Assembly: GCA_951406725.2 (NCBI GenBank)
Contig: OX597820.1
Coordinates: 10,540,001 to 10,604,000, forward strand
Source of the DNA: Octopus vulgaris
Lineage: Eukaryota
Direction of reading: 5' to 3'
Length of the DNA: 64,000 nt
Made by a program: the position numbers and the translations under genes. Positions 5,283 through 55,565 of this stretch are shown one piece after another. The notes below the pieces were generated by a model. The model did no database searches and was not told where the DNA came from. It saw nothing but the letters and a program-made list of their open reading frames with translations. Each line of letters begins with the position of its first letter. Position 1 is the stretch's first letter.

Positions 5283-5540
5283 TTATTGTTATTATTCACT
5301 CGTAACACAGTGTAGGTAAAAATGACCGGAGTCTTTAGTCGTCTGTCAAGTCACAACAAGGACTCCAGACAGATAATACTTTCCTTAACATGTGCGCTGT
5401 ACCCAATAAGGCTGAAGTGTGAGACGCTTACAGCACCTAGGTTTCCCAAGCGGTCACCCATCTAAATATTCACTACGTTCGATATTGCTTAACGTTGGTG
5501 ATCTGACGAGAACCGGAACTTTGAACGTGATATGGCCGTT
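5283..5540 (-). mobile_element. 5S rRNA head fused to an R4/Dong-like 3' tail (SINE3-like)
   Basis: On the minus strand, a 5S-like sequence is followed directly by TSALLGTAHMLRKVLSV, a UTR and a TAA-like tail. Confidence 0.7.
5426..5540 (-). pseudogene. 5S rRNA-derived sequence, diverged
   Basis: Reverse complement acggccatatcacgttcaaagttccggttctcgtcagatcacc..gttaagcaa..gatgggtgaccgcttgggaa.cc.aggtgctgtaagc follows the 5S rRNA consensus with many substitutions; no oligo-T terminator. Confidence 0.9.
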
Positions 5541-6635
5541 TATTATCATTATTGTTATTTTCGTTATATAATTTCAGAAACTTGAAAGTATATTTCTGAA
5601 AATTACGCTTTCGGGTGTTCTTATGCGCATCCGTCAATAATAGACTAAAATGGGTTTCTTTTACGTAATATTTTTCATAAATATTTTAATGTGTAGCATG
5701 AAAATGAAATTACATCTATGCAATCTATTGGTAAATAAAGGGGAAAAAACGTTAAATTTTGTAGTTTCGGTTCTTGCATGTTGATCATACATGGTGTGCT
5801 GTGTTTATTAAATGCGATACTTTGCTTTCATTAACGTAATATGCATTTTTAAAATTTATTATCTAGATATATAGTCGTTATTAACACTGACAGCATTTCT
5901 ATAATTCTATTAAGTTGACATGGATACATAACTTTCACGATTAAACTCTAATTCCATTGTTTGAAGAGTTAACAATTAATAAAATAAAGACAACCATATG
6001 TAACCACATGCAAACTATGTACAATATACGACCGGCCATATGAAATATAATTACAAACACACAAAAGCGAAATCATGGAAAACATTTCGTAATGAAAATT
6101 TACGAGTAAATGCGTAATATAAATATGAATTTCAAATTAAATTTGATTTCATTTCGTTAATATTTTGTATGGGGTTTCTACATAGGATAATTTTCTCTTC
6201 GATGTGTTTTATTTGGTAATTTCGATTTAAATCAAACAATATAGAATAGAGATTACACGATAATGCATTCCCATTTAGATTATCATAATATGATCCAAAG
6301 AATTTATTAAAACCATAGGGATATATCAAATCATATGTGATAGAGTTTAAAGTGTCGCCATTGCTTTTAGATTTCCAATTTACTCTAAAAACGAGAATAA
6401 AATAGACATTTATTTTCCATGATATAAACTAAACTAAATTGATGAAATAAATTTTCTGCTAAACAACTATTACCACTATGGTTATAACAGACTGTTATCT
6501 GCTGTTCTACCATCATCCCGCTGCAACTGAATCTTCAATATTTCTATGACTCTTATTCTGGGCAGCAACTTCTGTCTCTTTTCTCCTTTTTGATTCATGA
6601 TCTATACTTTCAACCTAGCAATGGTATTTCAACTG

Positions 6636-7437
6636 AAGGCGGCGAGCTGGCAGAAACGTTAGCACGCCGGGCGAAATGCTTAGCGGTATTTCGTCCACCG
6701 TTACGTTCTGAGTTCAAATTCCGCCGAGATCGACTTTGCCTTTCATCCTTTCGGGGTCGATTAAATAAGTACCAGTTACGCACTGGGGTTGATGTAATCG
6801 ACTTAATCCGTTTGTCTGTCCTTGTTTGTCCTCTCTGTGTTTAGCTCCTTGTGGGTAGTAAAGAAATATGTATTTCGTCTGCCGCTACGTTCTGAGTTCA
6901 GATTCCGCCGAGGTCGACTTTGCCTTCCATTTTTTCGGCGTCGATTAAATAAGTACCAGTTACGCACTGGGGTTGATGTAATCGACTTAATCCGTTTGTC
7001 TGTTCTTGTTTGTCCCCACTGTGTTTAGCCCCTTGTGGGTAGTAAAGAAATAGATATTTCGTCTGCCACTACATTCTGAGTTCAATATCCGCCGAAGTCA
7101 ACTTTGCCTTTCATCCTTTCGGGATCGATTAAATAAGTACCTGTTACGCACTGGGGTCGATGTAATCGACTCACCCCTTTATCTGTCCTAGTTTGCCCTT
7201 TCTATGTTTAGCCCCTTGTGGGCAGTAAAGAAATAAGAAACGTTAGCAAGCCGGGCGTAACGCTTATTGGTATTTCGTCTGTCTGTACGTTCTGAGTTCA
7301 AATTCCGCCGAGGTCTACTTTGCCTTTCATCCTTTCGGGGTCGATAAATCAACTACCTGTTGCGTACTGGGGGGTCAATCTAATCGACTGGCCCCCTGCC
7401 CCAAAATTTCGGGCCTTGTGCCTAGAGTAGATAAGAA
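6636..7437 (+). mobile_element. SINE family C tandem array (one head, 184-bp body units)
   Basis: Head ggcggcgagctggcagaaacgttagc; the tatttcgtc motif recurs near 6687, 6871, 7055 and 7271. Confidence 0.9.
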
Positions 7438-10395: not shown

Positions 10396-10739
10396 GTTTA
10401 GGCTCTGTAGAATGAATGGGAAGAGTGGTAGAAAAGAAGAACCAAATCCGACCGAAAGTGGTTCTGCGCCTTTCATCTGTTGACATTCGTTAGGTGTTGT
10501 GTTTCAAGCGACTCTGTCGGCATTGCTGCAAGTCAGGAACGGAGGCGCTTCTACACTTAAACCGTTTTCGTTTACAGCCACCCACAGATGTTGTTCTTCC
10601 TTAACTTCACTCGACTAATATATATACACAGTTGTGTTTATTAATCTACAGGTAGTGATACGCCTCTACATGTTCACATTACGCATACATTGAGTGGTGC
10701 GTTTATAGAAACGCATACATACATGCACGCACGTATAGC

Positions 10740-12390
10740 ACACACTTACAGACACACACAAATGCAAAACACACACAGACTCACAAATGCAAACACAACA
10801 CAAACACACACATACAAACACACACTCACAAATGCAAAACACACACATACAAACACACACAAATACAAAACACACACACTCACAAATGCAAAACACACAC
10901 ATACAAACACACACAAATACAAAACACACACACTCACAAATGCAAACACACACATACAAACACACACAAATACAAAACACACACACTCACAAATGCAAAA
11001 CACACACATACAAACACACACAAATACAAAACACACACACTCACAAATGCAAAACACACACATACAAACACACACAAATACAAACACACACACTCACAAA
11101 TGCAAAACACACACATACAAACACACACAAATACAAAACACACACACTCACAAATGCAAAACACACACATACAAACACACACAAATACAAAACACACACA
11201 CTCACAAATGCAAAACACACACATACAAACACACACAAATACAAAACACACACACTCACAAATGCAAAACACACACATACAAACACACACACATACAAAC
11301 ACACACACTCACAAATGCAAAACACACACATACAAACACACACAAATACAAAACACACACACTCACAAATGCAAAACACACACATACAAACACACACAAA
11401 TACAAAACACACACACTCACAAATGCAAAACACACACATACAAACACACACAAATACAAAACACACACACTCACAAATGCAAAACACACACATACAAACA
11501 CACACAAATACAAAACACACACACACAACACAAATGCAAAACACACACATACAAACACACACAAATACAAAACACACACACTCACAAATGCAAAACACAC
11601 ACATACAAACACACACAAATACAAAACACACACACTCACAAATGCAAAACACACACATACAAACACACACAAATACAAACACACACACTCACAAATGCAA
11701 AACACACACATACAAACACACACAAATACAAAACACACACACTCACAAATGCAAAACACACACATACAAACACACACAAATACAAAACACACACACTCAC
11801 AAATGCAAAACACACACACACAAACACACACAAATACAAAACACACACACTCACAAATGCAAAACACACACATACAAACACACACAAATACAAAACACAC
11901 ACACTCACAAATGCAAAACACACACATACAAACACACACAAATACAAAACACACACACTCACAAATGCAAAACACACACATACAAACACTCACAAATACA
12001 AAACACACACACTCACAAATGCAAAACACACACATACAAACACACACAAATACAAAACACACAAATACACATAAATACAAAACACAGACATTCACAAACA
12101 CACACAAGCACAAGACACACACACACACACTCACAAATACAAAACACACATAAACACAAAACACACACCCACAAACACACACAAATACAAAACATACAGA
12201 TACACACTCACAAACACACGCAAAACACAAAACACACACACACAAACACACGCAAAACACAAAACACACACACACAAACACACACAAACAACACACACGC
12301 ACACAAACACATACAATTTCAACACACTCACACTCACATAGACACACACACACACACGCGCACACAGTCACGCTCATATGCACATATACA
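10740..12390. repeat. 54-bp CA-rich minisatellite, about 23 regular units with degenerate flanks
   Basis: Unit cacacacactcacaaatgcaaaacacacacatacaaacacacacaaatacaaaa; 18-aa period in the overlapping ORFs. Confidence 0.95.
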
Positions 12391-45417: not shown

Positions 45418-45500
<83 letters not shown>

Positions 45501-45720
45501 TTAAAATTACTAAGTCTCTCTAAAAGAGAACAACGGCAGCGTTCCCGGAAAATATTAGTTATCGCCATACTAATATGGCATTCTTATAAAAATAAGAATA
45601 AAGCTGACCGCTTATTAGCTCCATGAGGCCATCGCCTTAAGTTAGCTATTTGATACACAAACTGTATCCATATAACCTTTGAACAAGGGAGGTCAGTCGC
45701 TCCACACTACTTGGCCGGCA

Positions 45721-45762
45721 GCTACAGACGCGTTTCGGAGTATTGCCCCTTTTCAATGCAGC
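45721..45762 (-). ncRNA. Hammerhead ribozyme (U3-A8 variant), inverted copy
   Basis: Reverse complement of the 46183 motif, with one G-U pair in stem II. Confidence 0.7.
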
Positions 45763-46182
45763 GTAGCCAAACCAGTAGGTGTCGCTTCCGACAATCTCTG
45801 TTCAAAGGTTTTATTTACCTAGCTTCGGTGGAATACATCCACTTGTTTTCAATAATAGAAATATTAAAATTACTAAGTCTCTCTAAAAGAGAACAACGGC
45901 AGCGTTCCCGGAAAATACAGTTTGTGTATCAAATAGCTAACTTAAGGCGATGGCCTCATGGAGCTAATAAGCGGTCAGCTTTATTCTTATTTTTATAAGA
46001 ATGCCATATTAGTATGGCGATAACTAATATTTTCCGGGAACGCTGCCGTTGTTCTCTTTTAGAGAGACTTAGTAATTTTAATATTTCTATTATTGAAAAC
46101 AAGTGGATGTATTCCACCGAAGCTAGGTAAATAAAACCTTTGAACAGAGATTGTCGGAAGCGACACCTACTGGTTTGGCTAC

Positions 46183-46224
46183 GCTGCATTGAAAAGGGGC
46201 AATACCCCGAAACGCGTCTGTAGC
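46183..46224 (+). ncRNA. Hammerhead ribozyme (U3-A8 variant); repeated at 46546-46587 and 46909-46950
   Basis: gctgca TTGAAAA gggg-caata-cccc GAAAC gc GTC tgtagc; palindromic ACGCGT in helix III. Confidence 0.75.
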
Positions 46225-47606
46225 TGCCGGCCAAGTAGTGTGGAGCGACTGACCTCCCTTGTTCAAAGGTTATATGGATACAGTTTGTGTATCAAATAGC
46301 TAACTTAAGGCGATGGCCTCATGGAGCTAATAAGCGGTCAGCTTTATTCTTATTTTTATAAGAATGCCATATTAGTATGGCGATAACTAATATTTTCCGG
46401 GAACGCTGCCGTTGTTCTCTTTTAGAGAGACTTAGTAATTTTAATATTTCTATTATTGAAAACAAGTGGATGTATTCCACCGAAGCTAGGTAAATAAAAC
46501 CTTTGAACAGAGATTGTCGGAAGCGACACCTACTGGTTTGGCTACGCTGCATTGAAAAGGGGCAATACCCCGAAACGCGTCTGTAGCTGCCGGCCAAGTA
46601 GTGTGGAGCGACTGACCTCCCTTGTTCAAAGGTTATATGGATACAGTTTGTGTATCAAATAGCTAACTTAAGGCGATGGCCTCATGGAGCTAATAAGCGG
46701 TCAGCTTTATTCTTATTTTTATAAGAATGCCATATTAGTATGGCGATAACTAATATTTTCCGGGAACGCTGCCGTTGTTCTCTTTTAGAGAGACTTAGTA
46801 ATTTTAATATTTCTATTATTGAAAACAAGTGGATGTATTCCACCGAAGCTAGGTAAATAAAACCGTTGAACAGAGATTGTCGGAAGCGACACCTACTGGT
46901 TTGGCTACGCTGCATTGAAAAGGGGCAATACCCCGAAACACGTCTGTAGCTGCCGGCCAAGTAGTGTGGAGCGACTGACCTCCCTTGTTCAAAGGTTATA
47001 TGGATACAGTTTGTGTATCAAATAGCTAACTTAAGGCGATGGCCTCATGGAGCTAATAAGCGGTCAGCTTTATTCTTATTTTTATAAGAATGCCATATTA
47101 GTATGGCGATAACTAATATTTTCCGGGAACGCTGCCGTTGTTCTCTTTTAGAGAGACTTAGTAATTTTAATATATATATATATATATGTGCGTGTGTGTG
47201 TATATAGTAGAAATATGTTACGAAGAGAAAATATTAAATACACGTGGAAATGTAAGGGTAAAATATGAAAGATCAACGAAAATGCATATTGCAAATAGAA
47301 AAAGGCTATTTATGACATGTAACGACAAATATATATATTTAGATTGACTGAGGTAGTAATACGAGTCATAAAAGTCATTATTATGAGATGATTATAAGAT
47401 GATAATAAATAAGAGAACAACACGAACCAATGATTTACGCAAAGCTATTCATCGTTTGAATATATATATCAACCATAATAATAATAGTGATTATTACGAA
47501 ATGGCGTAGCATAACCATTAATTCCTTTTATATACATATAGCTTTACATAGAATAACCTGATAGCAAGCCGGTAAATGCTTCGAGGAATCCCTTTATATT
47601 TACAAT

Positions 47607-48214: not shown

Positions 48215-48411
48215 ACACATTTATATATATATATATATAGAATGGTTGTATACTGTCAATCTAACAAGAACGTGACAGTAGGGGGTACACCACCGTTGTT
48301 TAGCTCTAGGAGGCATCGAACACCTCCTGACAGCTTCGACACATTTTTTCCCTGTGTCCTTATATACATATACGAAGGGGAGACAAACACCCCCAACCGC
48401 CGGAACTGCAT

Positions 48412-48455
48412 CTAGGGACACCGTGTTTCAGGATCATTGTCCTTCATCGGCCTAG
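48412..48455 (-). ncRNA. Hammerhead ribozyme (U4C core), inverted copy
   Basis: Reverse complement of 48754-48797. Confidence 0.72.
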
Positions 48456-48753
48456 AGTAGCAGACACCGGTCGGCTGGTGATATTTGCCTGGACTTCGTA
48501 TCTGTATATAAGTAAACTCAGTGAAGTCTATTCACTGATTATCAAAATACGAAATATTGAATTTCTAAACCTCTCGTAGAGACATGTACGGTGGTGGGGC
48601 GATAGAATGGTTGTATACTGTCTATCTAACAAGAACGTGACAGTAGGGGGTACACCACCGTTGTATAGCCCTAGGAGGCATCGAACGCCTCCTGACAGCT
48701 AAGACACATACGAAGTCCAGGAAAATATCACCAGCCGACCGGTGTCTGCTACT

Positions 48754-48797
48754 CTAGGCCGATGAAGGACAATGATCCTGAAACACGGTGTCCCTAG
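48754..48797 (+). ncRNA. Minimal type I hammerhead ribozyme (U4C core)
   Basis: ctagg CCGATGA agga-caatga-tcct GAAAC acggt GTC cctag. Confidence 0.75.
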
Positions 48798-49037
48798 ATG
48801 CAGTTCCGGCGGTTGGGGGTGTTTGTCTCCCCTTCGTATATGTATATAAGGACACAGGGAAAAATGTGTCGAAGCTGTCAGGAGGCGTTCGATGCCTCCT
48901 AGGGCTATACAACGGTGGTGTACCCCCTACTGTCACGTTCTTGTTAGATTGACAGTATACAACCATTCTATCGCCCAACCACCGTACATGTCTCTACGAG
49001 AGATTTAGAAATTCAATATTTCTTATATATATATATT

Positions 49038-54275: not shown

Positions 54276-55565
54276 GAGGGACGTTCAATAAGTAATGCCT
54301 CTGACCCATTTGCAGTTGTTTGATCTAGCTGAAATTTTGAATGTGTAATCATTTATATCTCTATAGAGTAAGTGACAAATTACAGCTCTGAACTAATTGT
54401 GGTTTCTGATTTACAGGTGTTTGAACTGAGTCAAGAGTGAAATGGAGCCTGTTGAGTGTCGAGCAGTGATCCGGATTTTGTATTTGAAAGGACGCACACC
54501 GCGGGAGACTTTTGATGAAATGAAAGTAACTTATGGTGATGATGCCCCATCATATGACCTTGTAAAACGCTGGGATCGTGAATTCAAACATGGTCGGAAC
54601 TCTGTGGAAACAGCTCCCAGATCTGGTCGCCCCCTTCTGCCATTGATGAGACATCTGTCCGTCATGTTGAGGCTGCCATTTTGGGGGATGGACGCATAAT
54701 TATTCGCCAAATAGCCCATGAAATCAAGATTCGTACCGGGTCTGTGGAAACTATCATTCATGACCATTTGCATATGCAAAAGGTGTCTGCCAGATGGATT
54801 CCCAGGTTGCTCACGCCTTTCCAGAAGCAAGAACGCGTCGAGTGCTCGAGGATGAATTTGGAGATGTGCCAAGAAGATGAGTGAAAAGTTTTCAAAAGAC
54901 TGATTACACAGGATAAAACCTGGGTCCATCACGATGATCCAGAGACCAAAGCCCAGTCAATGCAGTGGAAGCACTGTGACTCACCCCCTCCAAAGAAGGC
55001 AAGGGTGCAGCCCTCCGCTGGCAAGGTCATGCTCACAGTCTTCTGGGACCAGGACGGAGTAGTGATGACAGATTTCCTGGCAAAGGGTACCACAATTACA
55101 GGAGCCTATTATGCTTCACTTTTGAGGAAATTAAGAGAAGTTATCAAAATCAAGAGGCGGGGCAAGATCAGCAAATGCATCCTCCTCCTGCAGGACAACG
55201 CTCCGGTCCACAACTCGCGTGTCGCCAGATCAGAAGCACAGGCGTATGGCTATGAACTCCTCCCCCATGCCCCCTACTTTCCTGACATTGCACCCTCTGA
55301 TTTTCACCTCTTCCCAGCCATGAAGTTTTTTTTGAAAGGAAAGCATTTCCCAGATGATGCAGCCTTGATTTCTGAAGTCACGTTGAGGTTGGAGGACCAA
55401 GCTGGGTTCTTCTACAAAAACGGTCTCCAGAGCCGCATCAAACGATGGGAGAAATGCGTAACTCTGGGTGTTTCCTATGTAGAAAAAGATTAATAACTGT
55501 GCCAAGTTTCGTTGCTCTACTGCTATGGGAAGTGAGTCAGGGGCATTACTTATTGAACGCCCCTC

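Follow-up and report, generated by a model that had tools for sequence, protein, structure and literature searches.

The closest described counterparts of the element analysed here are the metazoan non-LTR retrozymes. In the available text of PMC7229834, these are dispersed, ORF-less repeats with 170–400-nt tandem units (350–390 nt in Mytilus), each unit having one type I hammerhead ribozyme (HHR), a GC content below 50%, and a highly self-paired predicted RNA, in genomes that also contain Penelope-like elements (PLEs). Circular RNA has been demonstrated in coral, mussel, and axolotl, and PLEs have been proposed as the driver (PMC7229834, PMC7761336). A 2026 preprint (10.64898/2026.07.22.740005) ties retrozymes to the pLTRs of PLEs by distribution and phylogeny. 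How non-LTR retrozymes move, and how PLEs come to make tandem and inverted insertions, are stated as open questions in the parts available of PMC7229834, PMC8557442, and PMC7761336.

PLE insertions are reported to carry an inverted truncated copy, to have the tail at just one of their ends, and to lie preferentially in (TA)n (PMC8557442, PMC3846280). Purified PLE protein cuts and extends both DNA strands and prefers AT-rich DNA. In vitro, it starts at two internal RNA sites, the interval between which is the tail, and uncleaved RNA is the main substrate (PMC11167929). Non-autonomous elements of the Chlamys type, e.g., MRC1, are PLE passengers that lack coding sequence, have pLTRs, and insert as multiple head-to-tail copies; the available account has them without canonical HHRs and generally resembling the 3′ end of their partner (PMC8557442).

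The window, i.e., the whole 64,000-nt stretch of Octopus vulgaris DNA that was analysed, comes from a 2.8-Gb genome rich in microsatellites. An earlier note on it had described a tandem plus inverted array of a 363-bp unit joined at an ATA. The array is real: the arms overlap by 3 nt, and (TA)n lies on both sides. The tandem arm has a period of 363, with 3.5 copies (3.47 units) and 99% matches, and the inverted arm, 45492/45496–45917, is 97–100% complementary to it. Unit positions are numbered from 45915 (position 1). The features are as follows.

45421..45495, no strand: left (TA)n target run.
45496..45917, minus: inverted arm, 1.16 units, with its 3′ end (position 172) against the TA run and its 5′ end at position 114.
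45721..45762, minus: predicted type I hammerhead of the inverted arm, with one G-U wobble change in stem II.
45915..45917, no strand: head-to-head junction, 3-nt microhomology ATA.
45915..47173, plus: tandem arm of 3.47 units (363 bp each), running from position 1 at its 5′ end to position 170 at its 3′ end.
46030, repeated at 46393, 46756, and 47119, plus: site A (unit position 116), family-wide 3′ end point and putative reverse transcription (RT) start site.
46031..46093, plus: 63-nt “tail” from site A to site B (position 179 = 46093), which typical insertions have at just one end.
46135..46146, plus: 5′ arm (positions 221–232) of the 12-bp stem by which the ribozyme rod is closed.
46183..46224, plus: predicted type I hammerhead, first copy, called by pattern scan, folding, and covariation.
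46219..46581, plus: predicted self-cleaved 363-nt monomer, from HHR to HHR.
46260..46271, plus: 3′ arm of the 12-bp stem, positions 346–357, at the family hot spot of arm 5′ ends (335–357).
46546..46587, plus: predicted hammerhead copy 2, identical to the first.
46582–46944, plus: second predicted 363-nt monomer.
46909..46950, plus: predicted hammerhead copy 3, in which one G>A alters the stem III palindrome.
47174..47187, no strand: right (TA)n target run.

Since the element has (TA)n on either side, no TSD, which in non-LTR retrozymes is longer than 4 bp where present, can be delimited. The ORF scan found no ORF of at least 120 aa in the element, and GC is 0.415 in 46001–47000. Among the hairpins listed earlier, 46135–46146/46260–46271 is exact, and the TGTCG/CGACA hairpin is not supported, being broken by 242G>A in 21 of 40 loci and absent from the sister family described below.

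Each full unit carries a predicted type I hammerhead. A regular-expression scan of the window returned six hammerhead-like motifs, two in a neighbouring insertion (48237–49033) and four in this element, at 46189, 46552, and 46915 on the plus strand and 45756 on the minus strand, i.e., one per full unit, with three consecutive on the plus strand. In the first copy, the predicted stem I has 6 bp (46183–46188/46219–46224), and the core reads UUGAAAA (46189–46195; U3:A8), not CUGANGA. Stem II has 4 bp (46196–46199/46205–46208) and a CAAUA loop, GAAA follows at 46209–46212, stem III is the palindrome ACGCGU, and cleavage is predicted after C46218. Replacement of C3:G8 by U3:A8 is known from Schistosoma PLE ribozymes, and helices of 6 and 4 bp with a short palindromic helix III are given as the canonical animal form, which works as a dimer, in the available text of PMC4209133. 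The fold of the monomer is better than that of shuffled sequences (z −6.9; 0 of 100 as good). In an alignment of 25 sequences with the sister family, 94.6% of cells pair, against 29–41% in slid controls, and in 5 of the 31 pairs both partners change, these being differences between two families, each one event, in a pairing register chosen after the alignment had been viewed. The covarying pairs sit in the outer stem, the stem I extensions, stem II, and the stem III palindrome. Rfam returned no hammerhead at E up to 1 for the whole window or up to 10 for 46100–46300; the basis of the call is our own pattern together with folding and covariation. Visual comparison with consensus sequences, plus the Rfam scan, led us to set aside twister, HDV, pistol, and hatchet motifs.

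Dispersed copies of the unit, which the note had proposed looking for, are found by a genome search. Searching with the unit gave 1174 candidates, and the 40 scored, a sample biased towards loci with full units, are all 98–100% identical across full units. A second search, with positions 91–179, gave 802 candidates, of which 40 were scored and 18 were new loci. The family thus comprises at least 58 near-identical loci on many contigs, with a median identity of 99.1%; 51 of the 58 are two-armed, head to head, and 7 are single-armed. L030 and L066 are one insertion, duplicated. A sister family (L108–L137, e.g., L134) has a 362-nt unit, 82% identical, with a UUGAUAA core; it is older, has 2724 candidates in the genome, and uses the same end sites. 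The insertion at 48237–49033 is a second retrozyme insertion from another family, with a 365-nt unit and a hammerhead with a CCGAUGA core. It too lies in (TA)n, with inverted arms ending at its own two sites and a 55-nt tail; its family has 1942 candidates, and its site-B region is 75% like that of the sister family.

The element is therefore a member of a young genome-wide family of 363-base repeats carrying a predicted self-cutting RNA. As the earlier note proposed, it is retrozyme-like: dispersed, ORF-less, and made of tandem units with a type I HHR. It is a non-LTR retrozyme, an already described class, and represents a recent insertion that is ordinary for that class. It shares with metazoan non-LTR retrozymes the unit length, the single type I HHR per unit, the GC content, the lack of ORFs, the dispersal, the self-paired predicted RNA, and the presence of PLEs in the genome, and differs from those in the available text of PMC7229834 in its U3:A8 core, its (TA)n targets, and its lack of a definable TSD; moreover, circles have been demonstrated there and are a prediction here. 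A plant LTR retrozyme, with type III HHRs in LTRs, a PBS, a PPT, and a 4-bp TSD, does not fit the type I topology and the tandem units without LTRs.

The inverted second arm and two fixed end sites set these insertions apart from the retrozyme descriptions found. The 3′ ends of the arms fall into two classes, site A at 108–119 (mode 116) and site B at 176–180 (mode 179), which were set on the first sample and then applied unchanged to the second. One arm ends at A and the other at B in 27 of 33 two-arm loci of the first sample and in 16 of 18 of the second, 43 of 51 in total. No locus is A+A (0/51); the window locus is B+B, as is L245 (167/179) if so counted, and six other two-arm loci have one odd end. 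Had the arms chosen their sites independently, as by coin toss, 43 of 45 A+B would have p = 3e-11. The same pairing recurs in 11 of 15 two-arm loci of the sister family, whose ends are at 116/175, and in 14 of 16 of the neighbour's family, whose ends are at 365/55; neither has a same-site pair. Nearly all A- or B-type 3′ ends (95/102) abut a TA run. Microhomology by itself does not account for the choice of start site: ATAT ends at 95, 116, 170, and 361 and TAT occurs at 13 places, yet 116 and 179 dominate.

At the window locus, the outer ends lie at unit positions 172 (left) and 170 (right), so the earlier statement that both stop at the same monomer position is nearly right, and this same-end layout is the family exception. 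Both ends lie 7–9 nt before site B, which among the 51 two-arm loci is otherwise seen only in L245. The locus breaks the A+B rule and so counts against the twin-priming explanation.

Where the arms meet, an overlap of at least 2 nt is found at 40 of 47 junctions, against 17% by chance. The 5′ ends of the arms fall in 335–357, at the 12-bp stem, in 31 of 106 cases and at the cleavage site in 4 of 106, the latter enrichment not being significant; in the second sample, 4 of 36 lie at 300–305. Identical inversion junctions recur without aligned flanks (9 of 48 junctions: L001/L229, L013/L078, L009/L071, and L016/L028/L236), one of them with A and B swapped; arm joining has hot spots.

The note had also raised a chimeric or palindromic read artefact. 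The junction of the window locus itself, 45915–45917, is unspanned among the pieces listed from four public runs. Against an assembly or read artefact stand 51 two-arm loci, whose junctions mostly differ and whose outer ends are fixed, and contigs of other runs, in which a wide variety of inversion joints and the end at position 179 next to TA are found. An artefact is hardly credible on this evidence.

A further possibility is that the inversion arises by fold-back self-priming on antisense RNA rather than from two target-primed starts. Such a route has been proposed for rotifer Penelopes in the available text of PMC3846280, and a 14-nt palindromic joint at 342 occurs in three loci (L016, L028, L236). 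It would leave the one-A-one-B outer ends unexplained, however, and both 5′ ends are within 25 nt of each other on the unit at only 11 of 48 junctions, with 6.7 expected by chance. We consider fold-back very improbable.

Priming from both DNA ends, as had been suggested, is upheld in a sharper form: the two arms have separate start sites, each at a fixed place in the unit. At the same offset from the 3′ end, 42 variant sites are common to both arms; the arms disagree at another 82 sites, an expected outcome of subsequent mutation or of RT error. L028 and L245 each have, in the terminal units of the two arms, variants absent from upstream units. The shared variants and these terminal units support one enzyme dimer priming twice on one RNA. 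The nearest familiar process is L1 twin priming, a head-to-head inversion in which two target-primed cDNAs are joined by microhomology. In L1, one start is fixed, at the poly(A) tail, and the other is internal and variable, whereas here both starts are fixed and internal.

The match to EN+ PLEs is closer. In the available text of PMC8557442, PMC3846280, and PMC11167929, those elements likewise have partial tandems, an inverted 5′-truncated copy, a tail at one end, two internal RT starts, AT-rich or (TA)n targets, microhomology joints, and an HHR. The tail is 63 nt here and 30–40 nt in EN+ PLEs, and helices I and II are of canonical size here, as opposed to the minimal HHR described for EN+ PLEs. 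The element is not itself an autonomous EN+ PLE, as no RT plus GIY-YIG ORF was found in it. The two end sites match the RT start sites of the PLE tail, which points to twin priming on one RNA. Two fixed ends and head-to-head arms are likely the footprint of PLEs, which would copy this RNA into TA microsatellites.

Three or more PLE families of this genome are very young and have long open frames (L082–L100, L183–L202, and L203–L214; 781 aa, 775 aa, and up to ~1200 aa), and young autonomous PLEs of this genome lie in (TA)n with two ends 40 and 32 nt apart. In the 781-aa family, the linker is of the CxxxxCxxC type and the hammerhead is minimal, with U3:A8. When four PLE families (781-aa, 775-aa, ~1200-aa, and L065-type) were compared with the unit or a tail profile, no significant match emerged and no autonomous partner was found, which counts against the PLE-driven explanation. 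Nor was a Chlamys-type resemblance to a partner's 3′ end found here. A 13-nt stretch of the ~1200-aa family (L203–L214), ~65 nt before its 3′ end, matches the antisense of the hairpin before site A and is probably a chance match.

The unit might instead be the pLTR of an autonomous PLE, the loci being 5′-truncated copies of it. Xenopus retrozymes resemble pLTRs in the part available of bioRxiv 10.64898/2026.07.22.740005, one PLE family's HHR has the UUGAUAA core and ACAUGU stem III of the sister family, and the scored loci are 40 of 1174 and 40 of 802 candidates. On the other side, no arm in the 58 loci examined continues into shared non-unit sequence or an in-register ORF, so that the monomer is not confined to copies joined to a full PLE ORF, the outcome that had been named as fatal to the retrozyme reading. 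PLE ORFs do lie near a few loci; they are set apart by a TA run or other sequence, or face in the opposite direction. The longest arm reaches 4.35 units and is unit sequence only. A pLTR origin is thus quite unlikely.

What was the template? The earlier note proposed a circular monomer. In its favour, 57 of the 71 arms of the first sample run through the cleavage site, 28 of them two or more times, and the units are uniform: 25 of 28 informative shared variants are present in every unit. Of these 25, 23 are subfamily variants, which are fixed across all units of most loci, and only 2 are private to a locus. These two properties, uniform units and read-through of the cleavage site, make a circular template plausible; post-insertion unequal exchange could also homogenise the units. 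In five loci (L009, L016, L018, L028, and L071), both arms stop at 335–357 and differ by whole units, which fits a stop met at each turn better than one RNA end. Among the public runs listed as holding the sequence, none is catalogued as RNA, which is neutral as to expression. A 393-nt contig (363 + 30) from run X1, which is RNA only by guess, closes the unit on itself; it was not counted, as tandem DNA gives the same.

Several loci depart from this pattern. L070 has a private variant in four units and another in every second unit, an alternation that a dimer circle would give and a monomer circle cannot. In L233, a standard unit is preceded by two variant ones; L028 and L245 contain mixed units, and L023 and L069 show partial sharing. 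The mixed terminal units of L028, L245, and L233 cannot come from a monomer circle and call for a multi-unit RNA or a template switch. The 5′ ends at 300–305 are such as run-off from a cleaved linear RNA would give and count against a circle, as does the PLE assay, in which uncleaved RNA served as the main substrate (PMC11167929). The circular monomer is plausible and favoured as the template, these loci apart.

The strongest competing explanation draws on the same loci. PLE twin priming could have acted on an uncleaved linear multimer, circles being minor and arrays lengthening by unequal exchange or template jumps. The mixed units of L028, L233, and L245 and the partial sharing of L023 and L069 are in keeping with this, the 5′-end cluster at 335–357 could be a transcription start, and HHR mutants left PLE insertion in vitro unaffected in the available account of PMC11167929. 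Truncating linear copying, however, would only shorten arrays, and no arm exceeds 4.35 units, which speaks against a long master array among the loci scored. The subfamily variants fixed through all units, and the five loci in which arms stopping at 335–357 differ by whole units, also count against it. We regard the linear multimer as unlikely, with a real minority chance, and favour a template that is a mixture, circles most often.

We therefore propose that a protein-free hammerhead retrozyme is written into (TA)n by a PLE enzyme; as a whole, this is the best explanation, and we hold it to be probable, with some reserve. An existing array would be transcribed, and the RNA would cleave itself, probably as a dimeric hammerhead, and be circularised by a host ligase. 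A PLE RT/GIY-YIG dimer would then bind the RNA; the enzyme is predicted to nick both DNA strands and start RT at two fixed internal positions on a single RNA, likely a monomer circle in most cases and sometimes a multi-unit RNA. Both cDNAs would run round it for 0.1–4.3 units, often stalling where the 12-bp stem closes the ribozyme rod, and the two cDNA ends would anneal through 2–5 nt to leave the head-to-head arms, A+B ends, and microhomology joints seen in the young dispersed copies at TA targets, where the stems covary and the cleavage site is read through. The narrowest version, that one PLE dimer primes both (TA)n strands at two fixed sites of one ribozyme-made circle and rolls round it, is offered tentatively, its chances falling somewhat below even.

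In the literature searched, which consisted mostly of listings with few subscription papers and no supplements, no description of retrozyme insertion ends or of a strict one-site-per-arm rule was found. In the main text of 10.64898/2026.07.22.740005, the word “tail” is absent and “inverted” occurs only in a reference. The A+B rule is thus a modest, testable mechanistic addition to a known class. The retrozyme–PLE link has so far been based on co-occurrence and pLTR similarity; a young family with near-identical loci and one fixed start per arm makes it testable, given a short RNA, start sites known to the base, and young long-ORF PLE families in the same genome. If a PLE dimer does act on a circle, the A+B rule in three families would be direct evidence, from end anatomy, that animal retrozymes ride PLE machinery, and the 363-nt unit would serve as a minimal substrate with which tandem and inverted insertion by PLEs could be reconstituted in vitro.

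Other features share the window. A PLE 3′ end fragment at 47197–47460 (minus strand), 90% like L169, has the right TA run in common with the retrozyme. A 5S rRNA-like sequence at 5425–5543 (minus strand) exceeds the Rfam gathering score, and a 202-aa open frame at 54885–55493 (plus strand) resembles, as judged by eye, a fragment of a mariner-type transposase. A CA-rich 54-bp minisatellite of 29 copies occupies 10739–12303, and a three-copy tandem of 184 bp lies at 6685–7235.
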